A stretch of 58,093 nt of DNA from positions 1 to 58,093 of the IMG/VR virus record IMGVR_UViG_3300033067_000641. One strand, 5' to 3'. This stretch comes from a virus (Duplodnaviria > Caudoviricetes). The notes beneath the pieces are model-generated. The model was not told the DNA's origin. It was given only the letters and a program-made list of their open reading frames with translations, and did no database searches. How positions within the stretch are numbered: the first letter of the stretch is position 1; every line of letters begins with the position of its first letter. The position numbers and the translations under genes were made by a program. Below are positions 152 through 58,093 of the stretch, piece after piece.

Positions 152-181
152 CGTACCTTAACCACGAAGAAAGGAAACACC

Positions 182-421: not shown

Positions 422-440
422 CGCAACAGGTGAAACTGTG
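416..440 (-). repeat. Half/truncated attC (R' core plus L' remnant) or attI-equivalent array boundary
   Basis: Minus strand ...TTTCACCTGTTGC-GTTAGCC. GTGCGGGCTAAC (411-422) complements GTTAGCCCGTAC (145-156) at 11/12. No partner arm found. Confidence 0.65.
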
Positions 441-26020: not shown

Positions 26021-28102
26021 TTACACCTGTTTCAGGCCGAACGGGGTCTCGGCGAGATGAATGGCACGGACGCGGGTGTTGCCCGTCACGCGCACTTCGA
26101 ACGTGTCTGACCGATACCCCGTGGGGAGGCGGAAGGGGGCCGAACTCGTGATCTGGTATGAGTAGATCAGGTTCTTGTTCACATACAAGCTGAACCCGAT
26201 ATACGTCCCAAGGGGCTGTATCGTCTGGATGTAGCTACCGGCGATGGGAACTGCGCTGAAGGGAGCCGCGCCGATCGCACCGCCAACGCGATTGCTCGTG
26301 ATCAGGGCTTGGTTGGCGACAATAGTTGCCGCGTTCTGTGCTGCGAGGATTGCGTCGTTGGGGTTTGACCCGTAATCGGCAACCACCCGTGCCGCGCCGA
26401 GGTTGATATAATCCTTCGTTACCATGACCTTGGACTTCCAGTCCATTGACCCGTATGGCTGTGTCGGGTCATCCCAGAGGTAGACGTTGGTACCATAGGC
26501 GTAGTACATCTTGGCGGCGAGTTGATCGTAGTACGCTGTCGTGAAAGTCTGGCTCAACTCGACAAGGTAGCCGCCGATCTGGTCGTTGCGCTCGAAAACG
26601 AAGCTGCCACTCGCGCTTGTCGCGAAATACCGTCCGTTGTACTGCCTGGCGACCAGAGTCGTAGGATCGACCGAGACCCGCCATGTGTCCCAGTCATGGA
26701 CGGCCTTCGTCAGGAGGTCGCCGCCAGAGGTCGCTGAGTACACCGCCAGACCGCCGGGAGTCGGGAACACGAGGCCATAGCCCATATTGACGACGCCCCG
26801 TTTCGACGTGCAGGTCAGCGTATAGTCCATGCGAGTCTTCGACATCACAGAGGGCACAGCCCCCTGCATCACCCACGGGTTCTTCTTGGTCAGGACGACG
26901 ATGGTCTGGCCCACATTGTCGATCGCCACGATGTCGGCGTCGAGCGACTGCTGATACTTCACTGGCCACGCATGGGGTTGGTTGGGCTCGCAGAAGCAGA
27001 CGGTGTTGCCGTAGAACCCCACCATCATGTTGTTGTGGATGGCCTTAATGCCCTGAAGGTTCGACGGGGGCATGTCGTAGTAGAGCGACGGCAGCGCAGT
27101 CGTCAGGGTGTTGGAGGCGAGTGTATCGACGTAGGACGTCGTGCCGAGGCTGATGTCAGCCACCTTGAAGTAGCTCGAACCAGACGCCGAGGTGACGGAC
27201 CTATAGAGCCGCAGCACCATACCCGCTGTCTGATAGACACCCCCCGCGTATGACCCAGTCGTCGGGAACGCAGATGGCAAGCCGGAAATAGTAACGGTTT
27301 GCCCCTCCTTGATGTAAAGCTGAGAGGAGGTCGGCGACGGGGCAGACTCCTCCCCCCACGCGGTCAGCCAAGTATAGACGTAGGTGCGAAGGTACGTTGC
27401 GCCCGAGAGATCCACCCGCGCTGCCGCGTCGGCCCCCGCCACGACCGCCGCACCGGGGCAGTAATAAGTGAAGGTCGTCGAATTGACAACGGTGATCTGG
27501 GCATTCGTCAGATTGAACGTCGTGTCTGCGAAGGTCGTGGTCGTAACCGACGCGCCGGAGTTGAGGCCATGCGGGGCAGACGTAACGATCGTCGCCGTGT
27601 TGCCGGAATCGCGAGCACGAGTCGAGATCGTCAGTGTAGTGAAACTGGTCGCAGCGACTGTTGGAGCCGTCGGAGGAATGGGGAACCCAAGGGTGTAATA
27701 ACTCGTCGGAGCCAGATCCGCCGTGGTGCCGTTACTGGTGGCCATCAGGTAGTTCGTTACCTTCGGCTCGCCGTTGCCGGTCGTATCCCCCGTGTAGTAG
27801 ATCCGCTGCGTCGAGTTGGACGCCATCGCCGCCTTCGCGACATCAACGTCGGTGTTCCACGAGAGCCATAGGTTCGCCGTGATGCCCTTGCCTTGGATAT
27901 TGCTCGTATCAGTCAGAGGATAGATGGTGTTGATCGTCCCCGTGCGAGCGAGCGCCTTCTCCAAAGAGGACTGGCTGAACGGGATCAAGTCACCGGAGTA
28001 CAGCTTGGTGTTGTAGGCGAACTGCGCCGCCGTGTCTGGGAGGTTCTCCCCCGAGATCTTCGGTGCTTCACCAAGGAACTTGACGATCTTTACGGCTGAC
28101 AT
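26021..28102 (-). CDS. Tail hub/stabilisation protein (P22 gp10/T7 gp12 analogue)
   Basis: 693 aa. Motifs FLGEAP, YVYTW...EESAPSP, EPNQPHAWP, WKSK, FRLPTGY. Confidence 0.75.
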   Translation of the reverse strand: MSAVKIVKFLGEAPKISGENLPDTAAQFAYNTKLYSGDLIPFSQSSLEKALARTGTINTIYPLTDTSNIQGKGITANLWLSWNTDVDVAKAAMASNSTQRIYYTGDTTGNGEPKVTNYLMATSNGTTADLAPTSYYTLGFPIPPTAPTVAATSFTTLTISTRARDSGNTATIVTSAPHGLNSGASVTTTTFADTTFNLTNAQITVVNSTTFTYYCPGAAVVAGADAAARVDLSGATYLRTYVYTWLTAWGEESAPSPTSSQLYIKEGQTVTISGLPSAFPTTGSYAGGVYQTAGMVLRLYRSVTSASGSSYFKVADISLGTTSYVDTLASNTLTTALPSLYYDMPPSNLQGIKAIHNNMMVGFYGNTVCFCEPNQPHAWPVKYQQSLDADIVAIDNVGQTIVVLTKKNPWVMQGAVPSVMSKTRMDYTLTCTSKRGVVNMGYGLVFPTPGGLAVYSATSGGDLLTKAVHDWDTWRVSVDPTTLVARQYNGRYFATSASGSFVFERNDQIGGYLVELSQTFTTAYYDQLAAKMYYAYGTNVYLWDDPTQPYGSMDWKSKVMVTKDYINLGAARVVADYGSNPNDAILAAQNAATIVANQALITSNRVGGAIGAAPFSAVPIAGSYIQTIQPLGTYIGFSLYVNKNLIYSYQITSSAPFRLPTGYRSDTFEVRVTGNTRVRAIHLAETPFGLKQV

Positions 28103-44778: not shown

Positions 44779-45049
44779 TACTTTCTTGTATGTGTATTAA
44801 TACGGGTAGTTAGTTGTACCGATGTGTATTGGGTGATACATATACCACTAATTTTATTATTGGGGAAAAAATGGGCCGTGTTATGAACGGAACAGTCGAA
44901 AAAGGGGCCCCCCGTGGGGGGGTCGTGGCCATCTGCCCCCCGGTCGCCTTGCTTGCCTGACCCACCCCCTGCCGCCCCCGCCCCCCTACTGCCCCGAGGG
45001 GTATCTGTAGAGTGTGGGTTGTCGGCAGGGCAGACACGCCCTGCACGGC

Positions 45050-45071
45050 ACTTGGCAGACTTCTGCCGAGT
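45050..45071. repeat. Palindrome copy 1
   Basis: ACTTGGCAG-ACTT-CTGCCGAGT. Confidence 0.85.
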
Positions 45072-45098
45072 TCATCCACTCACTTCAAGGAGATTCAA

Positions 45099-45551
45099 AT
45101 GAGCAAGAAATCCACACTAGTAGCCGCAGTCGTTTCCGCCTTCCGTTCCCACAAGGACATGCACAAGACGATTGCAGCGCAACTGCCCAAGCTCTCTGCT
45201 GCCGAGCGCAAGGCGTTTGTGATCGACACAGCCAATGCTCTCGCGGCATGCTCGCCCAACGGCATGCAGACCTACGATGGGCAACGCGGCATCGCATTCG
45301 GCATCTGGGATGCGGAATCCGGCAAGATGGTTCGCACCCCGGAATGCAACGCTACACGGGAGTGGTTCCGGGTCAACGTCCTGCGCTACTTCAAGCCCGT
45401 GACCGAGCCGGTCGCTCCGTCTGCCATCTGGAGCAAGATCGCCGGAGAACTGACCACCATCAAGACTAAGGCCCGCAAGCTGAACACGGCAGAGCAGCGC
45501 ATGTTCTTCGCCCGCCTTGCCGAACTGGAAGCTGAGTTCTTCGCCGACTAA
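45099..45551 (+). CDS. Hypothetical early protein
   Basis: RBS AAGGAG, starts MSKKSTL. Confidence 0.8.
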   Translation: MSKKSTLVAAVVSAFRSHKDMHKTIAAQLPKLSAAERKAFVIDTANALAACSPNGMQTYDGQRGIAFGIWDAESGKMVRTPECNATREWFRVNVLRYFKPVTEPVAPSAIWSKIAGELTTIKTKARKLNTAEQRMFFARLAELEAEFFAD

Positions 45552-45572
45552 CTCGGCAGGAATCTGCCGAGT
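45551..45572. repeat. Palindrome copy 2
   Basis: ACTCGGCAG-GAAT-CTGCCGAGT. Confidence 0.9.
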
Positions 45573-45880
45573 CCCTGCCCCGCACTCGTGGGGCAGGGCT
45601 TATACCTTGCGATGGATCATGGCAATGAAGTCCGTCTGTGCCCGAGGCCGCTGTAGGGCCGCTATGACCCCTTGCCGCTTGAATTTACGCATTGCTCCCT
45701 CTATCCACTGGTTACGAAAACGCTCTCGCTCTGTTGGCGTGGCGAACCTGTATTGCGTCACGAGCTTGGCCGTTATGCCACGGTCGCGCACCTCTTTCGC
45801 GGCGTGGGCGCGGGGGGATGGCAGGTAAGGAATGGGCATGGTGTTCTCCAGTGGCGGGCGGGATGGCACCAGAGTAATGG

Positions 45881-46165
45881 ATAATCAAAAACAGGGCAAG
45901 TCGCAGAATTTGCTCAAACCTTTTGATTGCCCCTCCGCCCTAGTGGCACAAGGGAAAGGATAGACTAATAATCAAATAATAATAAAAATATATATATATA
46001 TAGGGGGTAAACAGAATCTGTCTCATAATATTTGTCTCGGCGAGCACTTCGTCCCTCCAAATATTTTCTGAGTGTGTAAATCCCCTTGATTATTTATTAT
46101 TTGATTATCCCCTGCCGAATGCCTTGCGGCAGTAGGGCGCACCCACAATAAAAGCACAATCAAAA
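45881..46165. other. Candidate replication origin (AT-rich core inside nested inverted repeats)
   Basis: 15-bp perfect IR 45968-45982/46094-46108, 15/18 IR 45936-45953/46122-46139, (TA)n run, repeated ATAATCAA. Confidence 0.5.
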
Positions 46166-46205
46166 TGCCGTTTCGCACAACCTTTTGTTTATTGGCAAGG
46201 CCGAA

Positions 46206-46227
46206 ACTCGGCAGAAGTCTGCCGAGT
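46206..46227. repeat. Palindrome copy 3
   Basis: ACTCGGCAG-AAGT-CTGCCGAGT. Confidence 0.9.
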
Positions 46228-46285
46228 CGTGACGTCATGCGTCACCTGACGAGGTCAGCTAATCCACCTACTGAAAGGAATCATC

Positions 46286-46681
46286 ATGGCAAACCAAGCA
46301 CGTTTCATCAAGCGCGTAGGCATGCACACCCTGTCCCTCGATCTGCCTGTGCGCGGGCGTGGTCACGCCTCATCAGCAGTGCCGGGCGGGTATCCCTACG
46401 ATGCCTACGACTTGGACTTCACCAACCCCGTAGCGTCGTGCCACAGCAAGCCCCTGCCGATGGTGGCGCACCTGAACTATCGTGGCGGCAAGCTGTGCGA
46501 GTCGGCGTTCCTCGCCGTAAAAGAGGAGGGCGCAGTCCCCGTGTTCCACCGCAACAGCGAGAACGACATGCAGCGGTACAACCTCGCAAAAGCCGCCGCC
46601 GTAGCGGCGCGTGAGAACGCGGAGGCCGAAATCGCAGCAGTCGAGTATCACATGCAGCACCGCCGCATGAGCGAGAACTGA
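46286..46681 (+). CDS. Hypothetical early protein
   Basis: RBS AAGGA. Confidence 0.75.
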   Translation: MANQARFIKRVGMHTLSLDLPVRGRGHASSAVPGGYPYDAYDLDFTNPVASCHSKPLPMVAHLNYRGGKLCESAFLAVKEEGAVPVFHRNSENDMQRYNLAKAAAVAARENAEAEIAAVEYHMQHRRMSEN

Positions 46682-46756
46682 TAGCCCGTCTATCAAAAAC
46701 CGTGGGGGAGAATCCTCTCCCACTTAATCGCAGTGCCTTCCATCATGGAGAATCAA

Positions 46757-46954
46757 ATGGCAACGAAGAACGTCAGCATCACCAAGCAAGTCACCACCAC
46801 CGTCGAGACCACCGAGCAGCGCATCGTGCTGCGCCTGCGCCCCGACAACGGGCAGAGCCTCGCCCAGATGAAGAAGGACAACAACCGCATCGCGGCGTTC
46901 GCCCGCGAACTGGGCTACATGCCCGTCAAGGTGAAGGAGGTCGGCAACTCGTAA
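46757..46954 (+). CDS. Hypothetical early protein
   Basis: RBS GGAG, starts MATKNV. Confidence 0.75.
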   Translation: MATKNVSITKQVTTTVETTEQRIVLRLRPDNGQSLAQMKKDNNRIAAFARELGYMPVKVKEVGNS

Positions 46955-46966
46955 GCGAACACCCGG

Positions 46967-46988
46967 ACTCGGCAGATCCCTGCCGAGT
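46967..46988. repeat. Palindrome copy 4
   Basis: ACTCGGCAG-ATCC-CTGCCGAGT, extended by GG/CC and followed by TTTT. Confidence 0.9.
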
Positions 46989-47014
46989 CCTTTTACCTAC
47001 TGAAAGGGATCACT

Positions 47015-47104
47015 ATGAACCAGATCGAACGTACAACGTGCGACCTTGCAGTCGCTATCCTCGCGGGCATCCTGCTCGCTTGGACTTTCGTGGAGTACCT
47101 GTGA
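47015..47104 (+). CDS. Small membrane peptide (29 aa)
   Basis: MNQIERTTCDLAVAILAGILLAWTFVEYL, TGATG-coupled to the next gene. Confidence 0.55.
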   Translation: MNQIERTTCDLAVAILAGILLAWTFVEYL

Positions 47105-47517
47105 TGAAAATCAAAACCGCAGACCTGATCGGCCCCGCTCTTGACTGGGCAGTAATGAAGATTGAAGGACGAGTCCTTGTTCAGACCCTTGGAGGAGGCT
47201 TGCTTGTAAATGGAAGACATGAAGACGGAAGAGAACTGCCAGAAGATTGGCAAATGACTTTCATGTGGCACCCATCAACCGACTGGGAACAAGGTGGCCC
47301 GATCATCGAACGGGAGAAAATCGACATTAGCTACTGGACTTCAGGCAACGCTTGGCACGGAGCCTGCCCCGGACGTATGCGCTACGACTGCGAAGGTGAA
47401 TATATTGATGGGTCGGATGGGCATAGTGATGGCCCCACTCCGCTCATCGCCGCCATGCGCTGCTTCGTTGCCTCAAGGCTCGGTGATGAAGTGGATGTGC
47501 CGGAGGAACTGAAATGA
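47104..47517 (+). CDS. NinX/DUF2591-family phage protein
   Basis: LIGPALDWAV...PSTDWEQGGPIIE...GPTPLIAAMRC. Confidence 0.85.
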   Translation: MKIKTADLIGPALDWAVMKIEGRVLVQTLGGGLLVNGRHEDGRELPEDWQMTFMWHPSTDWEQGGPIIEREKIDISYWTSGNAWHGACPGRMRYDCEGEYIDGSDGHSDGPTPLIAAMRCFVASRLGDEVDVPEELK

Positions 47518-47828
47518 AACTCAAGCGCAAGCAGATCATCGAGATCCAGTCCATGACAGCAGAGGAACTCGGCGCGTTCATCGGCATGATCAGCATGGTG
47601 TGGCAGTACGCGCACCCGATCGAGCCACCGAAGGACAGCAACGAGACAGACAGGCACAACTACCTGTGCGAGAAGTACGGCACGAGCAACGTCTGGGTGG
47701 CGAGCAACGCCCAAGAGTTTTATCGGCTCGCCGGGTACGCAGAGAAGGATGCCATGCACAGCAAGGGCGGCATCGTCGTGGCCATCATCCGCAATGGAGT
47801 CATCGAGCGAGAGGAGATGTTCAAATGA
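47514..47828 (+). CDS. Hypothetical protein
   Basis: ATGA-coupled. Confidence 0.7.
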   Translation: MKLKRKQIIEIQSMTAEELGAFIGMISMVWQYAHPIEPPKDSNETDRHNYLCEKYGTSNVWVASNAQEFYRLAGYAEKDAMHSKGGIVVAIIRNGVIEREEMFK

Positions 47829-48079
47829 AACGCACATCTGACATAACCAACACGCAGCAGCACAACAGCATCGCATGGTGCAAGGCGTACCTCATTGCGC
47901 TCGGCAACCGTGTGCCTGTCAGCCTGATCCATCCGCATGAGAACGTCCGGCAGTACATGGTCGAACTCACCCGCGAAGCACCGACACGCCTCATCGGGAC
48001 TGCGCCCTCAATCAGCAATGATCACGGTCTCGGCTGCGCGCTGCTGCAACCCACCCCCCGCCAACGGCGGCTTTTCTAG
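47825..48079 (+). CDS. Hypothetical protein
   Basis: ATGA-coupled. Confidence 0.65.
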   Translation: MKRTSDITNTQQHNSIAWCKAYLIALGNRVPVSLIHPHENVRQYMVELTREAPTRLIGTAPSISNDHGLGCALLQPTPRQRRLF

Positions 48080-48088
48080 GAGATCAGC

Positions 48089-48484
48089 ATGGCATTGAAC
48101 TGGAGCATCGGCAAGTGTGCCGACCACGAGCAGTTGTGGGTAAAGGACGGCGAGGAGGGCGGCAAGCCCATGTATCGCCTCAACCCCATCACCGATGGGC
48201 TGATCTGGCTCACCATGATCGTCGAGCAAGGCACCATCACCGAGGCGAACTGGCGCGAGTTCTATCGCCGCGCCAAGCTGTACGAGTTCTACAACGGCCC
48301 GTATTTCAACGGCGCGGAGATCACCCCGGCCATGATCCACAGGCACATCGGGCTCGCGACCAACGTCAGCAGCAGCAGCATCAAGAACTGGAACGCCCGC
48401 TTGCGTCAGTGGAGCGCGGAGTTCATCAAGCAGACCGCAGCACCGCAGGAGAAGTGGAAGTACGAAGCACCGAAGGTGGACTAA
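48089..48484 (+). CDS. Conserved hypothetical phage protein
   Basis: RBS AGGAG. ITEANWREFYRR...HIGLATNV. Confidence 0.75.
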   Translation: MALNWSIGKCADHEQLWVKDGEEGGKPMYRLNPITDGLIWLTMIVEQGTITEANWREFYRRAKLYEFYNGPYFNGAEITPAMIHRHIGLATNVSSSSIKNWNARLRQWSAEFIKQTAAPQEKWKYEAPKVD

Positions 48485-48490
48485 CGTCCA

Positions 48491-48526
48491 ACTCGGCAAG
48501 GCTGACTCGGCAGAAACCTGCCGAGC
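48491..48526. repeat. Palindrome copy 5 plus upstream half-site
   Basis: ACTCGGCAA(48491) and ACTCGGCAG-AAAC-CTGCCGAGC(48505-48526). Confidence 0.85.
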
Positions 48527-48554
48527 TTAACTACCTACTCACATGGAGTGCATC

Positions 48555-51459: not shown

Positions 51460-52296
51460 ATGAGTCACTTTGTTTGTATCGTTATCGGCGAGGACGCCAA
51501 AGCCCAACTCGCCCCCTACGACGAGAACATCACCGTCGAGCCCTACGAGGAGTTGTACGACGGGGAGAGTCTTCAGCGCATGGCCGCGCACTACATGATC
51601 GACCCCAACAACCTGCCTGCGTTGGCCGAGCAATTCCCCGAGTGGGCAGGTTGTAACGCCGTGGTCAGGGACGGCAAGCTGTACCGCATCTCCACCTACA
51701 ACCCGAAGTCGAAGTGGGACTGGTATCAACTCGGCGGCAGATGGGCGGGCATGCTCAAGCTCAAGGCTCCCGGTCAGGCAGTGCAGGGCGAGCGGTCGTG
51801 GGCCAACGAGCACGAGACCACGGACGAGATGCATGGCGATGCTGCGCTGAAGTGCGACATCGACTTCGATGGCATGCGTGACGAGGCAGCAGAGAAGGCG
51901 CAGGCCCGATGGGAGAGGGCGCAGTTGATCCTCAAGGGCAAGAGCTTCGACAGTTGGCAGACTGTGTTCGACCGGTGCGGGCGTGATGTCGAGAAGGCGC
52001 GACTGGAGTACCACGCGCAGGAGGGCGTCAAGCTGCTGAAGGAGGACAAGGAGTTCGCATGGGAGTGCGATGACATCCTCACCTCGCTGCCCGAGTACAT
52101 CGCTCGTGCCCGCATGCAGGCAGTGAGTTCGTTCGCCCTGTTGGTCAATGGCGAGTGGTACGAACGTGGCGAGATGGGATGGTTCGGCATGGCGAGCAAT
52201 GAGAAGGACGAGGACGACTGGTACAAGTTCGTCGCCCAACAACTCAATGCCGCATCCGAAACCACGCCGATCGCGGTGTACGACCTTCACATCTAG
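51460..52296 (+). CDS. Conserved hypothetical phage protein
   Basis: MSHF...YNPKSKWDWYQLGGRW...GEMGWFG...YDLHI. Confidence 0.8.
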   Translation: MSHFVCIVIGEDAKAQLAPYDENITVEPYEELYDGESLQRMAAHYMIDPNNLPALAEQFPEWAGCNAVVRDGKLYRISTYNPKSKWDWYQLGGRWAGMLKLKAPGQAVQGERSWANEHETTDEMHGDAALKCDIDFDGMRDEAAEKAQARWERAQLILKGKSFDSWQTVFDRCGRDVEKARLEYHAQEGVKLLKEDKEFAWECDDILTSLPEYIARARMQAVSSFALLVNGEWYERGEMGWFGMASNEKDEDDWYKFVAQQLNAASETTPIAVYDLHI

Positions 52297-52305
52297 GAGG
52301 AGACC

Positions 52306-52614
52306 ATGGGAGGTGACGACTATCTTCCCGTACACAAGCGGGAAGGCTACGCCGAGCGGATGTACGAGCACGGCGAGTTTCTACGCAAGGCAAAGAAGGA
52401 GAACGACATGCTTGAATCCAAGCGACAAGGGGCGTACTATACGGACGACAAAGGCAAGCGCATCTATTACAAAGACATCGCCAGAGACATCCGGCAACAC
52501 CACCCGAAACTCGAAGGGCAGCACATCTTCGCACAGCTTGACGCACTGGGCTTGCGGGATGGTTTCAACAAGGGACACACCGCGTGTGCGCTCCCCTATT
52601 CTTTCACTGACTAA
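52306..52614 (+). CDS. Hypothetical protein
   Basis: RBS AGGAGG. Confidence 0.6.
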   Translation: MGGDDYLPVHKREGYAERMYEHGEFLRKAKKENDMLESKRQGAYYTDDKGKRIYYKDIARDIRQHHPKLEGQHIFAQLDALGLRDGFNKGHTACALPYSFTD

Positions 52615-52626
52615 AGGACTACGAAC

Positions 52627-53604
52627 ATGGCAGCGAATATTGAACGAATGGCACTGATTGGCCAACCCGCATGGCACGGGTTGGAAGAAGTAATGAACGA
52701 GGACAGCACGATGGAGGAGTGGGCCGTTGCGGCTGCGCTCGACCACGCCATCGAGAAGGTGCCCGTGCTGTACAAGGTGAATGCAGATGGGTTCCTCCGC
52801 TCCTCGGAGGACAAGTTCGTCCTGTTCCGCACCGACACGGGCCGCGACCTCTCCATCGTCAGCGAGCAGTACAACGTGGTGCAACCGAAGGAGATTCTGG
52901 ATTCGTTCCAGTACCTCATCGACAAGCACGGCTTCAAGATGGAGACTGCCGGATCACTGGCGGGTGGCAAGAAGATCTGGGCGATGGCAAGCACGGGCAA
53001 CACCCTGCAAGTCGGCGTGATGGGCGACATCATCAAGCAGTTCATCCTCCTCGCCACCTCCTACGATGGCAGCATCGCCACCACGGGCAAGCACACGAGT
53101 CAGCGCGTCGTGTGCGAGAACACGCTCAACATCTGCCTCGGCAATGGCGAGCCCGCCGTGAAGGTGAATCATCGTAGCGTGTTCGACAAGGATCAGATGC
53201 TCATCGACCTCGGCCTCATGGAGAGCGAGTGGGCTGACTTCGGCGTGATGGCCAACCGCATGCACAACGCACCGGTATCGAAGGCGTCGACGGCAGCGCG
53301 TTGGTACGCTGAACTCCTGACCGAGCGGCCCATGACCGACGAGGAAGTCATCGAGATGGCGGGCGAGAACCGTGTCCTCAAGCAGTTGATGACCGTGTTC
53401 CGCGAGGCGAAGGGCGGCGAGCCGACCGTGTGGGGCTTGGTCAATGGCGTCACGGCATTCATCGACCATGTGCGTGGGCGCAGCGCAGACACGCGGCTCA
53501 ACTCGTCGTGGTTTGGTCAGGGTGCCAGCCTCAAGCAGAAGGCATGGGACAAGGCAGTGCTCACCGTCGCAGCCAACGACAGCGCAGTGCAGGTGGCGGC
53601 ATGA
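52627..53604 (+). CDS. DUF932 phage/plasmid-family protein
   Basis: PAWHGL, YNVVQP, ETAGSLAGGKKIW, TSYDGS, RVVCENT, WGLVNGVT. Confidence 0.88.
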   Translation: MAANIERMALIGQPAWHGLEEVMNEDSTMEEWAVAAALDHAIEKVPVLYKVNADGFLRSSEDKFVLFRTDTGRDLSIVSEQYNVVQPKEILDSFQYLIDKHGFKMETAGSLAGGKKIWAMASTGNTLQVGVMGDIIKQFILLATSYDGSIATTGKHTSQRVVCENTLNICLGNGEPAVKVNHRSVFDKDQMLIDLGLMESEWADFGVMANRMHNAPVSKASTAARWYAELLTERPMTDEEVIEMAGENRVLKQLMTVFREAKGGEPTVWGLVNGVTAFIDHVRGRSADTRLNSSWFGQGASLKQKAWDKAVLTVAANDSAVQVAA

Positions 53605-54149
53605 CATACCCCGTGCAAAAAGTCCGGCCAGTCCGGCCTGCGCCCGCCACCCCGGAGGACCACGGCTTGCCGTGGTCAAGCGACGATCTTGCTGCCGTCG
53701 TAGGCGACTACTTGTCGGGCATGTCGATTCAGCAACTCGCCGAGAAGTTCGGACGGACGACCGAGTCCATCCGTTGCAAAATCCCTCTCGCCCTTCAAGA
53801 CACCGGAGGGTATGTCGCGGATGTCTGCCCACAGATGTACCGCGACCGGGTGGCAGCAGCAACCAAAGCAGCGCATACGATACACACCAACATTCAATCG
53901 ACTCAGGAGAAACAAGTGAAGATAGTTATCGAAACCAAGACGTTCATCAACGGCAGCGACGTGGCTGCTCTCACCAACGACCAACTGTTCAAGTTCATCT
54001 CGGACATCGAGAACGAGGTCAAGCGCCTGTCGGCCATCGAGCACAAGCCGAAGGCACTGCAAGCCCAGATCAATGCGCTCAACTGCGGCATCATCGACAT
54101 CGTCGAGATCTGCGATGCGCGTCTGGCCAAGGAAGGCGGTGCAGCATGA
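53601..54149 (+). CDS. Putative HTH protein (possible internal in-frame GTG start at 53917)
   Basis: PWSSDD...MSIQQLAEKFGRTTESI. Internal AGGAG RBS. Confidence 0.6.
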   Translation: MTYPVQKVRPVRPAPATPEDHGLPWSSDDLAAVVGDYLSGMSIQQLAEKFGRTTESIRCKIPLALQDTGGYVADVCPQMYRDRVAAATKAAHTIHTNIQSTQEKQVKIVIETKTFINGSDVAALTNDQLFKFISDIENEVKRLSAIEHKPKALQAQINALNCGIIDIVEICDARLAKEGGAA

Positions 54150-54448
54150 GCAAGAATCTCAACAACGTCCTCGAATGCGTGTCCGGCGTCAAGGACATCT
54201 GCGACAACCTGCTCGCCATCAAGGGGGAGAAGTTCGTACAGAAGGTGCAGATCGTGCATTCGCTGTATAGCCTGTCGAAGATGGCTGACAAGGCGATCGA
54301 CAAGACCGACCCTATCAGGGGCGCGATGTTCTCATTCGCTCTCGACAACGTGACGGCGATGGTGATCAAGCACATCCTCGCCGACGACAAGGAGGCAGAG
54401 GACGTTCTGGAGTGGGCCGAGGTCATTGAGAAACGGCTCAACTCGTGA
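54146..54448 (+). CDS. Hypothetical protein
   Basis: ATGA-coupled. Confidence 0.7.
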   Translation: MSKNLNNVLECVSGVKDICDNLLAIKGEKFVQKVQIVHSLYSLSKMADKAIDKTDPIRGAMFSFALDNVTAMVIKHILADDKEAEDVLEWAEVIEKRLNS

Positions 54449-54678
54449 ATCATGCCGACCGAGAAAGACTGCATGCCCGGATCGAACGCGCTATCGACCG
54501 GTTGAAGTCGGGCGGCATGCGTATCGGCCCGAAGATGCATGATGCCCTGTACCGCATGGCATGCGTCGGCGCAATGGCCGTGAGCAAGGGGAAGAACCCT
54601 GAGCTTATGCATGCGATCGTGACGGGGCGGAAGTTGTCCAACAAGACATGGCAGGAGGTGCTAGGTGGCAACGATTGA
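54445..54678 (+). CDS. Hypothetical protein
   Basis: GTGA-coupled. Confidence 0.65.
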   Translation: MNHADRERLHARIERAIDRLKSGGMRIGPKMHDALYRMACVGAMAVSKGKNPELMHAIVTGRKLSNKTWQEVLGGND

Positions 54679-54868
54679 CGATCTGATGGATCGTCTTATC
54701 CGAGTCGAGTCCAGACTCGTACAACTGATGTTGCACATGGGAGCGACCCCGAAAGGGGTTCTCCCTGATAAGGACGATCCGGCGTACTGGGGAGGCAAAC
54801 GCCTGAACAGGGAAGCAGAAGTAGATGGCAAGAAAGAACTCAATTCACTACTCAGGAGAGAACCATGA
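54665..54868 (+). CDS. Hypothetical protein
   Basis: RBS AGGAGG. Confidence 0.65.
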   Translation: MATIDDLMDRLIRVESRLVQLMLHMGATPKGVLPDKDDPAYWGGKRLNREAEVDGKKELNSLLRREP

Positions 54869-55092
54869 ATTTCGACTTGATCAAGTCGGAGCTTGATCAG
54901 CATCGCAAGGTTCTGGAACTGGTGGGCAGCAGGACACCCGTGAAGGACACGCCTCATCAGTTGAGTGGCTTGGGCTTCAGCAGCACTGGGCGAGAAGTCC
55001 GTCGACGACTTGCAGGCGATGTTGGCCAGTCTGTAACCAACTACGCGGGGCTTCGGCCCCGCCCATCAGGAGAACGAAATGTGGTTTTATGA
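54865..55092 (+). CDS. Hypothetical protein
   Basis: RBS AGGAG, ATGA-coupled. Confidence 0.6.
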   Translation: MNFDLIKSELDQHRKVLELVGSRTPVKDTPHQLSGLGFSSTGREVRRRLAGDVGQSVTNYAGLRPRPSGERNVVL

Positions 55093-55210
55093 TGACGAAG
55101 GAGAGGGTGGCTACGTCGATTTCATCACCGACGCGGGGTTCGCGGTCATGGCTGTGTTGATTGTGTGCGCCGTTTTGGCGATCATAGGAGGTGTGCTGTG
55201 GCCGTGGTGA
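55079..55210 (+). CDS. Small membrane protein (43 aa)
   Basis: MWFYDDEG...FAVMAVLIVCAVLAIIGGVLWPW, RBS AGGAG. Confidence 0.55.
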   Translation: MWFYDDEGEGGYVDFITDAGFAVMAVLIVCAVLAIIGGVLWPW

Positions 55211-55353
55211 GGTTGTTCTACCGACTCTGGTACGGCTTTGAGATGAGCATGGCCTACCTCGCAGGAAACATGGGTGACACGATCAGCATGGCGAACCACG
55301 AACGCATGGCTGACGTTGTCTGGAAGAAATGGTTTACGGAGGGATTGAGATGA
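55198..55353 (+). CDS. Hypothetical protein
   Basis: RBS GGAGG before a GTG. Start uncertain. Confidence 0.5.
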   Translation: MAVVRLFYRLWYGFEMSMAYLAGNMGDTISMANHERMADVVWKKWFTEGLR

Positions 55354-55631
55354 ACGATGATGGGTTCTGTGGGATGTTGGTTCTGATATTGAGCCTGCTC
55401 CTGTGGGCGATTACCACGATGAACCATGCCGAGACGTTCATCAGGACGCGGGAGAAGATGCACCGCACCGGCATTGACCTGTGGTGTGAACTGGTGAATA
55501 GGTTGCAGGAATGCCTCGATGACCAGAACATTCCGCAGAACGTCGAGGGGCCTGCGGAGCTATGCCCCAAACCTGCGCCCGGTTTTGAATTCGATGCCCG
55601 TGGCGTTCTCGTGAGAAAGATGGACTCATGA
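55350..55631 (+). CDS. Membrane-anchored hypothetical protein
   Basis: N-terminal TM segment, ATGA-coupled. Confidence 0.6.
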   Translation: MNDDGFCGMLVLILSLLLWAITTMNHAETFIRTREKMHRTGIDLWCELVNRLQECLDDQNIPQNVEGPAELCPKPAPGFEFDARGVLVRKMDS

Positions 55632-56017
55632 AGTTCGAATTCGAACGCGCCGACCCTGCCGCGCTTGCCACCTTTGACCCACGGACCAAAGCATGCACCA
55701 TGAATTGCGGACCAAGTTTTGACGATCCGCGATCACCAGAGGAACGGCGTTTTCTGTGTCCTGACTGCGAAACGGTCAAATTGCCACGGCAACAGGATTT
55801 TGATTGGGCTGATCGACAACTGCCGACCGGAGTTACGCGGCAAGACGTGTGCATCTGGACGCAGGACAGCGATGGACCGTGGAACACTTCCTGCGGTGTG
55901 ACGTGGGAATTTGTTGATGGTGGACCAGCCGAGAACGGTGCGCATTTTTGCCACCATTGCGGTGGGGTGCTGATGGCAGCGCCATTTGCCGACGACGATG
56001 CACAGCCTAACGTGTAG
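55628..56017 (+). CDS. Cys-rich protein ending inside the first attC
   Basis: CTMNCG..CPDC and C..SCG..FCHHCG. Ends ...PNV*. Confidence 0.7.
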   Translation: MKFEFERADPAALATFDPRTKACTMNCGPSFDDPRSPEERRFLCPDCETVKLPRQQDFDWADRQLPTGVTRQDVCIWTQDSDGPWNTSCGVTWEFVDGGPAENGAHFCHHCGGVLMAAPFADDDAQPNV

Positions 56018-56072
56018 TTCAGGGGGCTGAGCCGGCCTTATGGCGAAGCTCCCTTGCAATGACGGGTTAGCC
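56005..56072 (-). repeat. attC: attC-like site (68 bp)
   Basis: Minus: GGCTAAC-CCGTCA-TTGCAAGGGAGCT...AGCCCCCTGAA-CTACAC-GTTAGGC. Confidence 0.88.
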
Positions 56073-56111
56073 GCCTGCCCACTCAGACGGCACAACAGCA
56101 AAGGAAAAGAA

Positions 56112-56477
56112 ATGCGCACACTGAACGAGCACCAAGTAAACCCCGCGAATGACACGCTGAAAATTACCGTGACGGATGAACCCGGCGCTGGCGGCGCAAA
56201 CCACCGCTACGAAGTGAGCGGCATCCCGAACCAAACGGCGACGGTTATTGAGTTCCAGAACGGGCCGATTAACGAGGACGGCAATGGCGTGAACGGCCTT
56301 ACGCATGAGGTTCTGCTTGCCATCGTCGCCGACCGTCTGCGCAGCTTCCAAGCAGGGGCTTACTCCTGCAAGGCGAACGCTTGCGCTCTGACGCACATTG
56401 AGGAAGCGCAGCACTGGCTGCAACAGCGCACTCTGGAGCGCATGCGCCGTGGTGTCGAAGGTACTCACACGGTTTGA
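56112..56477 (+). CDS. tad1: Tad1-like anti-Thoeris sponge protein (cassette-borne)
   Basis: GAGGANHRY, IEFQNG, LLAIVADRLRSFQAG.YSC..NACALTHIEEA..W...R...R..RGVEGT, matching the Tad1 pattern as I recall it. RBS AAGGA. Confidence 0.82.
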   Translation: MRTLNEHQVNPANDTLKITVTDEPGAGGANHRYEVSGIPNQTATVIEFQNGPINEDGNGVNGLTHEVLLAIVADRLRSFQAGAYSCKANACALTHIEEAQHWLQQRTLERMRRGVEGTHTV

Positions 56478-56513
56478 TGTGACGGCCGGCATGACGACGC
56501 GAGAACTCATGCG

Positions 56514-56636
56514 CTCTAACGTAGAGCTAACCGGCGTGCCGCCCACGGACGCCACCAAGGGAGGATGAGCATGGAGCAAGAACAGAAGGTTGAAGGAACA
56601 TCGAGCGGCACGTCCGCGTTGAGCGCCGGGTTGGGG
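56514..56636 (-). repeat. attC: attC-like site with long terminal loop (123 bp)
   Basis: Minus: CCCCAAC-CCGGCG-CTCAACGCGGACGTGCCGC...GCGGCACGCCGGTTAG-CTCTAC-GTTAGAG. Confidence 0.85.
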
Positions 56637-56852
56637 GCGATGACGCATTTCTGGTGCGAGGTGTGCGATGCAATACAGCCCGCATTTTTTGAGGGGGCGA
56701 ACCACCAAGATACGTCTGGTGATTTTGTCGGAGGCGATGTTGTGTGCAGCGTGTGTGCCTTCATCGTTGCCACTGCATATACCCCCAACGTGGATGTCAC
56801 CGGCGCGAGCGGCGCTTTTGCCGCGAAGCGTCCGTGTGGACAGAAGGGTTAG
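56565..56852 (+). CDS. Cassette zinc-ribbon protein, starts within one attC and ends within the next
   Basis: GGGAGG RBS in the attC loop. CEVC...CSVC. Alternative ATG at 56640. Confidence 0.65.
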   Translation: MSMEQEQKVEGTSSGTSALSAGLGAMTHFWCEVCDAIQPAFFEGANHQDTSGDFVGGDVVCSVCAFIVATAYTPNVDVTGASGAFAAKRPCGQKG

Positions 56853-56854
56853 CC
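56783..56854 (-). repeat. attC: attC-like site (72 bp)
   Basis: Minus: GGCTAAC-CCTTCT-GTCCACACGGACGC...GCGCCGGTGAC-ATCCAC-GTTGGGG. Confidence 0.88.
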
Positions 56855-56857
56855 ATC

Positions 56858-57082
56858 ATGAACCGGATAGAAGTTGACCGCGCCCTCGGGCAGACGCCAT
56901 GCATCTGTGGCGACGTTGAGAACTGGCACCCGCAATGCTATGCGAAGTTTCTCGGCAGGCCGAAGCACGAAATTGATGCCGCGATGGATCGCGCTTACCG
57001 CACGGCGCGGCGCAAGTTGAAAGAGCGAGCGAAAGTGCAGGCAGGGGAAGCACTAATGATGGCTAACGCAAAAGTGAGCTGA
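56858..57082 (+). CDS. Cassette hypothetical protein (CxC..WH..CY)
   Basis: ATG just after the core box. Ends ...ANAKVS* inside the next attC. Confidence 0.7.
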   Translation: MNRIEVDRALGQTPCICGDVENWHPQCYAKFLGRPKHEIDAAMDRAYRTARRKLKERAKVQAGEALMMANAKVS

Positions 57083-57126
57083 CTGCGCGGCTTTTCGCGC
57101 AGGTCAGCTCGACTGCCGGGTTAGCC
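57061..57126 (-). repeat. attC: attC-like site (66 bp)
   Basis: Minus: GGCTAAC-CCGGCA-GTCGAGCTGACCTGCGCG-AAAAGC-CGCGCAGTCAGCTCAC-TTTTGC-GTTAGCC. Confidence 0.92.
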
Positions 57127-57151
57127 CCGGCGCTACTACGGAGAAAAGAAC

Positions 57152-57529
57152 ATGGACATACAACGACTGCGGAACCTGACCACCGGCCGGCTGCACACCA
57201 AGATGGAAGACATCTACGCCGACATTGAGCACCTGACCGGTGAGGAAGGCGTGATGACACACCAGCTACCGAACGCATGCCGCGCACTCGAACCTTACCT
57301 GCGCGAGAAAGTGACGGATGAGCGGTTTTGGGACGGTGAATACGACACCACGCACACCGGAGAAATTGACGTTCCGCCGATGGACGATGTGGCGCGAAAG
57401 ACGATGTGGGAGCGGTACGGCGCAATGCCATCGTTGCTGGCCTCGATAGGGGCTAACGTCGAACATCAGGGGCCGCGTAGCGGTCCGCTGCATGGCCCGG
57501 TTGGGCCACAAACCAAGGAGCCGATATGA
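57152..57529 (+). CDS. Cassette hypothetical phage protein reading through the next attC
   Basis: RBS GGAG. LTTGRL...MTHQLP. ATGA-coupled to the next cassette gene. Confidence 0.75.
   Translation: MDIQRLRNLTTGRLHTKMEDIYADIEHLTGEEGVMTHQLPNACRALEPYLREKVTDERFWDGEYDTTHTGEIDVPPMDDVARKTMWERYGAMPSLLASIGANVEHQGPRSGPLHGPVGPQTKEPI
57451..57506 (-). repeat. attC: attC-like site (56 bp)
   Basis: Minus: GCCCAAC-CGGGC-CATGCAGCGGACCGC-TAC-GCGGCCCCTGATG-TTCGAC-GTTAGCC. Confidence 0.88.
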
Positions 57530-57729
57530 AACTACAACAAGCCGCCGCAGAACTTGTGAAGCTCGCAGAAGCGAACGATGCGATGTCTTTCATCTTCGAC
57601 ACCTCGCAGGACGGGAAGGTGCGAATTGATTGGCAGGGCTGCATGAAGATCGAAGTTGCACCGGGCGATATGCAAGCCGTGGTGGATGCAATGCAAATGC
57701 TGGAAGACCTTGGGATCGCGGTGATATGA
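57526..57729 (+). CDS. Cassette hypothetical protein (paralogue A)
   Basis: RBS AAGGAG. Confidence 0.78.
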   Translation: MKLQQAAAELVKLAEANDAMSFIFDTSQDGKVRIDWQGCMKIEVAPGDMQAVVDAMQMLEDLGIAVI

Positions 57730-57730
57730 G

Positions 57731-57791
57731 GCCCAACGAGTGAGGTAACCGGCGCCTGCTTGCAGGCGTCCGGTTGACCGAGAGGCATAAC
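57731..57791 (-). repeat. attC: attC-like site with micro-inverted R'' box
   Basis: L arms GGTAACCGGCGCCTGC/GCAGGCGTCCGGTTGACC are intact. The expected + strand GTTATGC reads GCATAAC inside the IR CCGAGAGG/CCTCTCGG. Confidence 0.8.
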
Positions 57792-57817
57792 CTCTCGGAA
57801 CTATGGAGGAACGACAA

Positions 57818-58012
57818 GTGAGCATACAGGCAGCAGCGCAAGAGGTGTTTGATGCGTGCAGGGCGGTGGATGAAGAACTTGAGGTGACTTTCGACGCCAA
57901 CGAAATCACGATCTATTGGGAAAACCTTCGCATCGACGTGCAGCCCAAAGACCTCGTCAAGGCGCTCAAGGTGATTAAGGACGCCAAGGCGCTCGGAGCG
58001 AGATTCGAGTGA
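57818..58012 (+). CDS. Cassette hypothetical protein (paralogue B)
   Basis: GGAGG RBS before GTG 57818. Aligns with 57526-57729. Confidence 0.78.
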   Translation: MSIQAAAQEVFDACRAVDEELEVTFDANEITIYWENLRIDVQPKDLVKALKVIKDAKALGARFE

Positions 58013-58013
58013 G

Positions 58014-58084
58014 GCATAACGCCGCCTTGAGGGGCGCGGAGCCGGCTTCATCGGCGGAGCGTCCGCTCGAAGGCACAGTTATGC
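58014..58084 (-). repeat. attC: attC-like site (71 bp)
   Basis: Minus: GCATAAC-TGTGCC-TTCGAGCGGACGC...GCGCCCCTCAA-GGCGGC-GTTATGC. Confidence 0.88.
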
Positions 58085-58093
58085 GTAAGGAGG

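Follow-up and report, generated by a model that had tools for sequence, protein, structure and literature searches.

We think it likely that the 58,093-nt window (the whole stretch of DNA analysed here) is a complete tailed-phage genome without an integrase that carries a CALIN (clustered attC sites with no integrase nearby), in which one cassette encodes a sponge of the Tad1 family and whose attC units could be mobilised by an integron integrase (IntI). Integron cassettes move antibiotic resistance and, as shown more recently, also carry anti-phage defence genes from one bacterium to another. The presence of Tad1 as one of about eight integron-style cassettes suggests that phages trade counter-defence genes in the way that bacterial resistance genes are traded. 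Tad1 and phage CALINs are both known already; what is new here is the Tad1 cassette, the inverted polarity of the cassette genes relative to attC, and a phage relative that bears IntI.

An attC array without an integrase

A search of the window with the covariance model R2, derived from the phage repeats, returned eight attC sites (E ≤ 7e-4), all eight on the + strand within positions 56004-58086 plus 94-153, which form one 2.24-kb block spanning the record ends; the next best match anywhere in the window stood at E 0.52, so that the array is far outside what chance would give (Table 1). The record ends fall inside the array, which continues across them and lies in a hypervariable early-gene region, just upstream of the DNA polymerase. 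Its layout is one of eight attC sites with one small gene after each; the 174 bp from attC_H to attC_A hold no convincing gene. Since the window contains no tyrosine recombinase (no match to PF00589), this array of eight sites on one strand is a CALIN and not a complete integron, and any mobility needs an enzyme from outside; in Qi 2023 (PMC9892861), the minimum given for a CALIN is at least two attC sites.

Table 1. Features of the array in order along the + strand, across the record ends. R1 and R2 are covariance models.
Feature	Position	Strand	Boxes	Scores and remarks
attC_B	56005-56072	+	R' GCCTAAC (AAC 56009-56011); R'' GTTAGCC	R1 51.3 bits, R2 45.4 bits; fold of R box, 5-nt spacer and imperfect, bulged stem; extrahelical bases at positions 16 and 23, numbered from the 3' end
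Tad1 cassette	56011-56519	+		509 bp, AA/C of attC_B to AA/C of attC_E
Tad1 homologue ORF	56112-56477	+		121 aa, ATG 56112 to TGA 56477
Hairpin GCATGA-N12-TCATGC	56489-56512	+		directly before next R' box
attC_E, long form	56514-56634	+	R' CTCTAAC (AAC 56518-56520); R'' GTTGGGG	R1 20.2 bits, R2 35.9 bits; central loop ~76-79 nt
Small Cys-rich ORF	56640-56852	+		70 aa from ATG 56640 (93-95 aa if the start is 56565/56571, inside attC_E); weak coding score, 7.1 bits; 3' end overlaps attC_D
attC_D	56783-56854	+	AAC 56787-56789; R'' GTTAGCC	R1 25.4 bits (outside R1 training set), R2 42.6 bits; extrahelical G16/T20/T24
74-aa ORF, no assigned function	56858-57082	+		coding score not convincing
attC_C	57061-57126	+	R' GGCTAAC (AAC 57065-57067), fully complementary to R'' GTTAGCC	R1 49.5 bits, R2 53.5 bits; extrahelical G16; MFE -24.1 kcal/mol, z -5.6
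DUF7736 ORF, 125 aa	57152-57529	+		Pfam PF24875 E 2.7e-17; coding 33.5 bits; last ~23 codons extend into attC_F
attC_F	57451-57506	+	AAC 57455-57457; R'' GTTGGGC	R1 23.6 bits (outside R1 training set), R2 48.0 bits
67-aa ORF, no assigned function	57526-57729	+		coding 28 bits; no family or PDB match
attC_G	57731-57792	+	R' GCCCAAC (AAC 57735-57737); R'' GCATAAC	partial model match, 8-52; stem with G16/T23 present
69-aa ORF, no assigned function	57803-58012	+		L180 homologue 91% aa, also attC-flanked
attC_H	58014-58085	+	R' GCATAAC (AAC 58018-58020), complementary to R'' GTTATGC	R2 22.8 bits, E 7e-4; in no training set; MFE -21.8 kcal/mol, z -3.3
attC_A	96-151	+	AAC 99-101; R'' GTTAGCC	R1 65.2 bits, R2 62.1 bits
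79-aa ORF, last cassette gene	182-421	+		coding 24.6 bits; L032 homologue 54% identity; stop codon inside solo R' box
Solo R' box GGCTAAC	417-423	+		no attC body after; attI position of complete integron

The original prediction placed a 121-aa ORF between two attC sites and drew a cassette around it, and both the flanks and the interval hold: the ORF lies between attC_B and attC_E, position 56011 is the C of the attC_B AAC triplet, and position 56519 falls on the middle letter, A, of the attC_E triplet. Both ends therefore coincide with the canonical AA/C crossover points, and 56011-56519 is one cassette. An equivalent Tad1 unit is bounded by the same boxes in three contigs (L049, L051 and L056), and a hairpin analogous to the one that precedes attC_E also lies 3' of Tad1 in these three and in L017. 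Because of the long central loop of attC_E, its 5' half alone is obvious by eye. Among 80 Tad1 loci, seven have an attC directly upstream and nine have any attC in the flanks examined, and Tad1 was not found among 80 bacterial IntI loci; cassette carriage is thus exceptional for Tad1. Genes beside Tad1 in the other 80 viral loci have almost nothing in common with the window genes.

One site appears damaged. The R'' box of attC_G does not pair and is apparently inverted between GAGAG and CTCTC (the equivalent position in L180 reads GTTATGA), and attC_G is probably disabled. Pfam and PHROGs gave no function for the other cassette ORFs, DUF7736 excepted, and the four of the six neighbouring ORFs that the PDB search covered (57152-57529, 57526-57729, 57803-58012 and 182-421) had no sequence match below E 0.02. 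The two ~68-aa ORFs show no similarity to each other. Rfam gave no match, no tRNAs were found, and a megablast search of 52000-58093 against deposited phages returned no match. As a separate observation, the conserved TGACGGGTTAGCC was considered by eye as a promoter and was rejected, there being no consistent -35/-10 pair.

Relatives, breakpoints and mobility

One relative, G001 (contig L051), carries phage genes for terminase, head, tail and tape-measure proteins. Its sequence continues from the Tad1 cassette through the equivalent of the solo box, GGCTAAC, to an intI that starts 38 nt later and matches TIGR02249 at 427 bits (cut-off 265). G001 is a temperate phage with the same Tad1 cassette adjoining a bona fide integron integrase. 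The shared sequence ends at GGCTAAC in L049, L051 and L056, and begins at GCCTAAC in L051 and L056. The DUF7736 and 69-aa-ORF cassettes recur in L178 and L180, where similarity again ends at the R' AAC; in L178, for instance, the DUF7736 homologue shows 90% identity across residues 1-102 before the resemblance breaks off at the AAC of attC_F. In all, the R' AAC is the end of similarity in four contig comparisons, and in a relative with a 67% identical polymerase the whole array is absent. An assignment of each ORF to the attC downstream of it was considered and rejected; in every case the similarity runs out at the downstream AAC.

The breakpoints are not all of one kind. Those on the left-hand side often lie off the upstream AA/C, and the inner stem and loop of attC differ in otherwise shared units (WIN_C vs. 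L178, WIN_G vs. L180, and L049 vs. L051). This pattern is not predicted by an IntI exchange that involves the bottom strand only, and it points to other recombination as well.

We regard it as unlikely that the array is a fossil, in other words a cassette block copied once into this virulent phage by ordinary recombination from an integron-bearing temperate phage or prophage, with Tad1 still working and the attC sites now unused. The donor proposed in that case is of the G001 / Rubrivivax-prophage type. Such an origin would be consistent with the lack of an integrase in the window, the damage to attC_G, the several ORFs that extend into the next attC, the breakpoints inside attCs, and the temperate nature of the elements that hold the closest IntI-bearing arrays. 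However, the complete attC geometry of R boxes, spacer, L box and extrahelical bases is retained by seven of the eight sites (R2 23-62 bits), and single cassettes are found again in other viral contigs, where the match breaks off at the AAC box. In four public runs, moreover, contig ends pile up at AAC boxes (12 of 64 listed ends within 2 nt), a result of reduced weight, since contigs break at repeats of every kind. Loose contig ends occur at both attC ends, as expected of any repeat, and so do not discriminate R' from R''. In run X9 there is no cover over 55000-55935 and depth varies greatly by cassette; absence from contig data is not evidence, and the listed read joints, which have sides shorter than 30 nt or inserts that are not known, were left out of our evidence.

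On our preferred reading, that of a CALIN with units that can still be mobilised, an integron integrase would excise and insert the cassettes, cleaving the bottom strand in its folded form at the A/C step of the R' box. The window phage would need this enzyme in trans, from an integron of its host or from another phage in the same cell, such as G001.

The Tad1 homologue and its predicted ligands

The 121-aa ORF had been assigned to Tad1 from five motifs, with a profile or structure comparison with Tad1 named beforehand as the check, and the assignment is supported. All five motifs (GAGGANHRY, FQNG, DRLRSFQAG, NACALTHIEEA and RGVEGT) are in the ORF and align column for column with CbTad1, which phmmer retrieved from the PDB at E 1.8e-18 (residues 23-120/121), along with CmTad1 at E 8.9e-16. 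The PHROG family of the ORF is phrog_2428 (E 3e-33), and its coding log-odds reach 44 bits; the Pfam model Acb2_Tad1_hairpin gave it only 14.7 bits, below the cut-off of 27. An AlphaFold model of the protein (pLDDT 82.5, pTM 0.71), in which the β4-α1 loop is poorly modelled (pLDDT 60, residues 51-60), was submitted to Foldseek, and all 20 matches at E ≤ 0.001, which are also the top 20, were Tad1 chains (TM 0.73-0.79); the next match stood at E 0.44. In the pocket, F79, N89, R106 and R110 correspond to F82, N92, R109 and R113 of CbTad1, whose mutation is reported to abolish gcADPR and cGAMP binding (10.1101/2023.11.15.567273), and these F, N, R and R residues are invariant across 43 homologues. 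At the trinucleotide-pocket positions, T94 keeps CbTad1 T97, and K87 replaces CbTad1 R90. Sequence, PHROG family, predicted fold and pocket residues together support the view that the ORF encodes a full-length Tad1 homologue.

The protein resembles the characterised CbTad1 (7UAV/7UAW/8KBE-8KBH) and CmTad1 (8KBB-8KBD) in length class (121 aa vs. 124-132 aa), in its predicted fold of an N-terminal beta sheet and two long C-terminal helices, and in its C-terminal lid motif; with CbTad1 it also has in common the residues of the gcADPR/cyclic-dinucleotide pocket. Identity to CbTad1 is only ~35%, however, and the source differs (a ~58% GC phage here vs. a Firmicute prophage), while packaging as an attC cassette sets the window gene apart from characterised Tad1.

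Binding of gcADPR is the predicted function of the 121-aa protein. The sponge would be made from an early transcript of the phage + strand and would bind gcADPR, the Thoeris signal, and probably also some of the cyclic di- or trinucleotides of CBASS; with the signal bound, the host effector would be kept inactive. It seems to us quite unlikely that this Tad1 fold instead has a different ligand spectrum, directed mainly against CBASS or some other nucleotide signal, which would make the label 'anti-Thoeris' misleading. The low identity, the lysine at position 87 and the low confidence of the β4-α1 loop would leave room for such a shift, as would the wide variation in cyclic-dinucleotide binding among Tad1 homologues that the same preprint describes (10.1101/2023.11.15.567273), but the four residues that CbTad1 requires for gcADPR are kept, and every homologue assayed in that preprint bound cADPR isomers.

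The repeats as attC sites

The repeats share a common geometry, in which an R' box (RYYYAAC) is followed by a 5-nt spacer, a 3-bp L box and then a bulged stem, with extrahelical bases at 16 and at 20, 23 or 24 on the arm opposite AAC; a bottom-strand layout with the same extrahelical positions has been described for attCaadA7 and VCR2 (Nivina 2016). The attC consensus is an imperfect inverted repeat of R' RYYYAAC and R'' GTTRRRY; AAC is present in all eight window sites and a pairing GTT box in seven (attC_G excepted). The stems covary, with 92% of cells paired vs. 77% in shuffles and 62 double-change cells vs. 21.6 ± 4.1, a count reached by none of 500 shuffles. The R1 model was built from phage sites alone, and on plasmid R100 it nevertheless picked out the authentic aadA1 attC (bottom strand 31.6 bits, top strand 7.6 bits) as its sole match in 50 kb; box order, spacer lengths and the extrahelical G16/T23 of this site, in In2 of R100, are the same as in the phage sites. 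In bacteria, R2 gave 34 matches in 7 of the 10 IntI loci searched, and all 34 lie upstream of intI, on the strand that codes for the integrase, with none on the wrong strand.

Folding energy was less informative. Of the two strands, + gives the better fold in seven of the eight window sites, and the remaining site is a tie (mean difference 2.2 kcal/mol), and when trimmed only three of the eight beat all 200 shuffles by energy. DNA folding of the two raw Tad1 flanks did not single them out (z +0.45 to -0.79), and these near-zero scores indicate that energy alone is no detector of these sites. Taken together, the attC geometry, the covariation, the R100 control, the intI-adjacent arrays, the IntI-bearing relative and the AAC-bounded similarity support the cassette status of the Tad1 unit.

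Homologous recombination has been proposed to shuffle genes among the promoter-stem-loop cassettes of T4-type phages. That the repeats here are regulatory stem-loops of the phage (terminators, RNA-stability elements or promoters), attC-like only, with genes shuffled by homologous recombination, we consider very improbable: the repeats do separate early genes that run in one direction and would form hairpins in the transcript, the inner hairpins are exchanged with flanks retained, and the genome lacks an integrase, but scanning 54000-58093 for sigma-70 promoters and intrinsic terminators gave no signal beyond that of shuffled sequence, the extrahelical positions equal those described for attCaadA7 and VCR2, the two models find a real attC and intI-adjacent arrays with none on the wrong strand, and IntI stands at the array end in a phage relative. 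Note that regulatory and attC roles of the repeats are compatible with each other and not mutually exclusive.

Inverted gene polarity

The eight ORFs with the highest codon log-odds all lie on the + strand; on the - strand no ORF exceeds 1.3 bits. The cassette genes of the window therefore lie on the attC bottom strand, whereas in control bacterial cassettes the longest ORF lies on the opposite strand in 11/11, 8/8 and 2/2 cases, that is, with canonical polarity in 21 of 21 cassettes. We scored polarity by codon log-odds together with homology and not by the longest ORF per cassette, since the longest-ORF rule is ambiguous in GC-rich phage arrays (in the window it divides 5 vs. 3 and miscalls the Tad1 cassette itself). 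The In2 cassette gene of R100 occupies the top strand, and its transcription starts at Pc and leads away from intI1; genes on the attC bottom strand, as in the phage arrays, would instead be read towards the attI/intI end by phage transcription and not from the integron Pc promoter. The phage array had been proposed as a possible mirror image of bacterial integrons that carry anti-phage genes, and this is literally true of its polarity, a respect absent from the original prediction.

Relation to known systems

Integrase-less attC clusters in virulent-looking phage have already been published as phage CALINs, and the same paper raises a counter-defence role for phage cassettes, with orphan methyltransferases as its example (Qi 2023, Front Microbiol, PMC9892861). 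The window array is likewise an attC cluster without an integrase, but it differs from those CALINs in its cargo, the signal sponge Tad1, in its density (2.24 kb hold eight attCs, every one with a single small gene), in the placing of its genes on the attC bottom strand, and in the temperate relative of the phage with IntI at the array end; the parts of Qi 2023 drawn on here mention neither Tad1 nor the polarity of genes relative to attC. Sedentary chromosomal integrons of bacteria are reported to store anti-phage defence cassettes (Darracq et al., 10.1101/2024.07.02.601686). As described there, they are alike in recombination-site architecture and in holding single-gene modules of phage-host conflict; here, in contrast, a phage carries the cassette, the cargo counters defence instead of providing it, the Pc/attI/intI platform is missing from the window, and gene polarity is reversed.

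The locus thus places a proven class of anti-defence gene under integron machinery inside a phage, with a link to phages that encode IntI. If the sites are active, they would permit site-specific, homology-independent swapping of phage counter-defence genes, and the six small window genes, as well as more in G001, G002, L180 and L095, would form a short and clearly bounded set of candidate anti-defence factors. A broader reading, which we offer tentatively, is that phages infecting Burkholderiales-type hosts in freshwater and wastewater share an integron cassette pool of their own, with inverted polarity, that acts as a counter-defence store. Were this so, the cassettes would be silent from Pc and expressed in lytic growth, temperate members (G001, the Rubrivivax prophage) would supply IntI, and unrelated virulent phages, the window phage among them, would gain and lose cassettes from the same pool, a match on the phage side for the defence cassettes of bacteria. 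Its candidate cargo comprises Tad1, perhaps a DHH phosphoesterase and a PAPS-reductase-like protein, and many small uncharacterised proteins. The inverted polarity is a concrete and testable departure from the integron model, and it would explain a cargo that is silent in the lysogen and expressed by the phage only. Sequence of the array is present in river, freshwater, wastewater and sludge metagenomes.

Tad1 is encoded in a cassette bounded by attC sites

Our analysis supports the finding as real and upholds the original prediction, which read 56011-56519 of the window as a Tad1-like sponge gene lying between two attC sites: this stretch is one 509-bp cassette, running from the C of the attC_B AAC to the second A of the attC_E AAC, and its ends thus coincide with the AAC of both sites. 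The 121-aa product of its ORF (56112-56477) is a member of the Tad1 family, known for sequestering the Thoeris signal gcADPR. In phmmer searches of all PDB chains it matched, over residues 23-120, both CbTad1 from a Clostridium botulinum prophage (E 1.8e-18) and CmTad1 (E 8.9e-16), and the motifs named in the prediction aligned column for column with CbTad1. In the profile and structure comparisons that had been proposed as a check, the protein was assigned to phrog_2428 (PHROGs, E 3e-33) and scored 14.7 bits with the Pfam Acb2/Tad1 hairpin model, below the cut-off of 27; its AlphaFold2 model (mean pLDDT 82.5; input alignment of 43 homologues) retrieved Tad1 chains as all 20 Foldseek matches at E ≤ 0.001 (TM 0.73-0.79), the first match after these standing at E 0.44.

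The available text of a preprint (bioRxiv 10.1101/2023.11.15.567273) assigns F82, N92, R109 and R113 of CbTad1 to the gcADPR/cGAMP pocket, and R90 and T97 to the cyclic-trinucleotide pocket. In the phmmer alignment the former correspond to F79, N89, R106 and R110 of the window protein, which are invariant across the 43 homologues, and the latter to K87 and T94; the window Tad1 would be expected to bind ligand. Some longer proteins match the window's Tad1-like region through their C-terminal ~85 residues (phrog_23843, phrog_22140 and PDB 8y6v, the last through its 230-aa chain I, 'gp184', at E 1.7e-11), which suggests that the sponge domain also occurs in fusions.

The repeats are attC bottom strands

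Near both ends of the window record (its final 2 kb and initial 150 bp), a YTAACG box repeatedly stands ~40-50 nt before GGGTTAGCC; other viral contigs carry this two-box element ahead of Tad1 homologues. Eight aligned copies yielded a 15-pair consensus hairpin, with compensatory changes in six of the pairs. In an alignment of 28 copies, which had been fitted to the model, 92% of cells were paired vs. 77% in shuffles, 62 cells carried two-sided changes (21.6 ± 4.1 in shuffles; matched by 0/500), and shifting the partner by one column reduced pairing to ~50%. On the + strand, the anatomy runs from RYYYAAC through a 5-nt spacer and a 3-bp L box to an imperfect stem with a variable loop, whose 3' arm has bulged bases at 16 and 20/23/24 (counting back from the 3' end); a second 5-nt spacer and GTTRRRY follow. 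In the available part of Nivina et al. 2016 (PMC5027507), the recombinogenic attC bottom strand has the same layout, with AAC in R' and extrahelical bases on the opposite arm (G16/T23 in attCaadA7; G16/T20/T24 in VCR2), and folding is biased towards that strand. The + strand fold was the more stable at seven of the eight window sites, with one tie (mean difference 2.2 kcal/mol); folding stability is a weak criterion, because only attC_C, attC_G and attC_H beat all 200 shuffles.

The attC call was checked by running R1 and R2, covariance models made from the phage repeats, on undisputed integrons. In 50 kb of plasmid R100, the sole R1 match at E ≤ 0.1 was the attC of the aadA1 cassette of In2 (31.6 bits vs. 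7.6 bits on the opposite strand), on the strand opposite aadA1, i.e. the IntI1-coding strand. Ten bacterial loci had been fetched with an integron integrase, and in seven of them R2 gave 34 matches (Limnobacter olei 12, a gammaproteobacterial MAG 9, a Rubrivivax MAG 7, Nitrococcus mobilis 3, three others 1 each), every one upstream of intI and on the intI-coding strand. The models therefore specifically recognise attC bottom strands. With filters off, R2 found eight window sites at E ≤ 7e-4, all on the + strand, the best remaining match being at E 0.52; successive sites enclose one small ORF each.

attC sites of the window, bottom-strand genes, and integrase and array regions of related loci
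Feature	Position or locus	Strand	Remark
attC_B	56004-56074	+	R2
attC_E	56513-56636	+	R2; found by R1 although outside its training set
attC_D	56782-56856	+	R2; found by R1 although outside its training set
attC_C	57060-57128	+	R2
attC_F	57450-57508	+	R2; found by R1 although outside its training set
attC_G	57737-57785	+	R2; found by R1 although outside its training set
attC_H	58013-58086	+	R2; absent from every training set
attC_A	94-153	+	R2
Solo R' box GGCTAAC	417-423		array end, inside stop codon of last ORF
IntI region	L051 5450-6427 = G001 26713-27693; also L091 5563-6558		integron integrase beside phage-type integrase
Opposed arrays of G002	L092 14902-20000; L093 1-6448
Tad1	window and seven other loci	bottom
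DUF7736	window	bottom
phrog_1273	L051	bottom
PAPS-reductase-like	G002	bottom	phrog_424, E 2.8e-44
DHH phosphoesterase	Rubrivivax MAG contig, L095 4937-5773	bottom	phrog_4771, E 1.5e-102

Flanked by short inverted repeats, GAGAG and CTCTC (57780-57797), the R'' box of attC_G has the sequence GCATAAC, which cannot pair; GTTATGA stands at its position in the homologous cassette of another locus, L180. A 7-bp inversion looks to have disabled attC_G. Both ends of the record lie inside the array (58087-58093 and 1-93), the last bases of the record being a strong Shine-Dalgarno AAGGAGG. From the attC_H AAC to the attC_A AAC, 174 bp contain no convincing ORF; sequence may be missing here at the record ends, or a cassette may be empty.

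Phage cassette genes have inverted polarity

In R100 and the bacterial arrays, polarity is canonical: cassette genes lie opposite to the attC bottom strand, as did the longest ORF in 11/11, 8/8 and 2/2 control cassettes. In contrast, the genes of the phage arrays lie on the bottom strand itself (Table). When ORFs were scored by codon log-odds, with the long genes of the window as training set, the top eight all lay on the + strand (best - strand ORF, 1.3 bits). The window cassette genes are presumably expressed. The available texts of Qi 2023, Nivina 2016 and Richard 2024 describe canonical orientation only, with no description of inverted polarity.

Related phages encode an integron integrase

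In locus L051, a 326-aa ORF begins 38 nt after the terminal GGCTAAC of a Tad1 cassette and matches TIGR02249 (NCBIfam, integron integrase) end to end at 427 bits, against a cut-off of 265 that none of the 14 control genomes reached. The whole 39-kb contig, G001, encodes terminase, head protease, major head, adaptor, major tail, tape measure, distal tail and fibre proteins, together with a second, phage-type integrase adjoining IntI; it is a temperate, siphovirus-like phage with a complete integron. Tad1 occupies the cassette closest to intI, among at least five attC cassettes, and since the genes are on the bottom strand these cassettes run in the direction of intI rather than away from it. 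Among 185,579 species genomes, the closest IntI belongs to a Rubrivivax MAG (73% identity), whose contig has the same order of array, intI and phage integrase. A third phage contig, G002, has two opposed arrays that together hold at least 14 attCs, one with a Tad1 cassette and the other with a PAPS-reductase-like gene, and L180 has five attCs within 2.2 kb. The DHH phosphoesterase cassette of the Rubrivivax contig might encode a nuclease that degrades nucleotide signals, and if so it would be a further counter-defence candidate.

Cassettes probably move as units; a hypervariable slot

Loci L051 and L056 have the whole attC, 5' UTR and Tad1 in common and are unrelated upstream of GCCTAAC; with L049, they share sequence through the post-Tad1 hairpin to GGCTAAC and diverge directly after. 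The window DUF7736 cassette recurs in L178 (90% amino-acid identity, residues 1-102), similarity stopping at the attC_F AAC, and the 69-aa ORF of the window recurs in L180 (91% identity), similarity stopping at the attC_H AAC. L175, whose polymerase is 67% identical to the window's, keeps backbone genes on both sides of the array region; it has no attC and nothing of the window segment between the 54665-54865 homologue and the polymerase, with ~1.3 kb of unrelated small genes (L175 1-2000) vs. 5 kb including the array in the window (54865-58093 plus 1-1815). By this comparison, the segment is a hypervariable accessory slot.

Pieces of the 2.2-kb array were found in 18 public runs from eight studies of river, freshwater, wastewater and sludge metagenomes. 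In four runs, certain contigs cover exactly one AAC-to-AAC unit and 12 of the 64 listed contig-piece ends fall ≤2 nt from an R' AAC, which is compatible evidence only, because assemblies break at any repeat. Cassettes may be mobile today in the integrase-less window phage.

Some exchanges depart from the canonical crossover

Left-hand breakpoints frequently lie away from the upstream crossover point (between AA and C), and an attC can have its inner stem and loop wholly exchanged while both R boxes, both spacers and the adjoining gene stay nearly identical. The attC_C unit of the window and L178 (1418-1477) are alike in R' with spacer and in 3' spacer, R'' and gene, with unrelated inner stems; the attC_G unit differs from L180 over the entire attC body; L049 (1-103) and L051 (4906-4966) have like arms and different loops; and the 74-nt attC_E loop (56537-56610) is swapped for 23 other bases in public contigs. 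These differences therefore indicate that the inner hairpin is replaced separately from the gene, an outcome not predicted by bottom-strand IntI exchange at the canonical crossover alone. An attC lies directly upstream in only 7/80 Tad1 loci and anywhere in the available flanks in only 9/80, and Tad1 is absent from all 80 bacterial IntI loci.

Relation to previous work

The Tad1 family and phage-borne CALINs (clusters of attC sites lacking an integrase) are already known; what is new is their combination, together with inverted polarity of the genes and a direct connection to IntI-encoding phages. According to the available text of Qi et al. 2023 (PMC9892861), 21 phages carry integrons or CALINs (CALINs in 17/21), IntI1 recombines 5/6 tested attCs from virulent phages, and methyltransferase cassettes were suggested to aid phages against restriction. 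Likewise from available text, bacterial integrons are stores of defence cassettes (Darracq et al., 10.1101/2024.07.02.601686), and some anti-defence genes are located in integrons (AntiDefenseFinder preprint). In our full-text literature search (Tad1 with integron; attC with anti-defense, phage and cassette), no paper described a phage cassette that carries a sponge gene. Neighbouring window cassettes may have an anti-defence role.

The window phage

The window is an entire IMG/VR record (58,093 bp; CheckV completeness 100) with no end repeats. Its - strand encodes terminase, portal/adaptor, major head protein, internal virion proteins and tail fibre, and its + strand DNA polymerase, exonuclease, helicase and primase; since these structural and replication genes are present and no tyrosine recombinase was found by a search positive in 14/14 control genomes, it looks like a virulent tailed phage. 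Searches for tRNAs and Rfam families returned none, and megablast of 52000-58093 against deposited phages gave no close relative. A 2883-aa ORF (11677-20328, - strand) adjoins the internal-virion-protein genes; its sole family match is phrog_30335, of unknown function (E 5e-20, in the C-terminal part), and it might encode a giant protein that is ejected. Five intergenic copies of a perfect-stem palindrome, ACTCGGCAG-N4-CTGCCGAGT, unrelated to the attC family, lie in the early + strand region (45049-48527) and could be terminators or operator sites.
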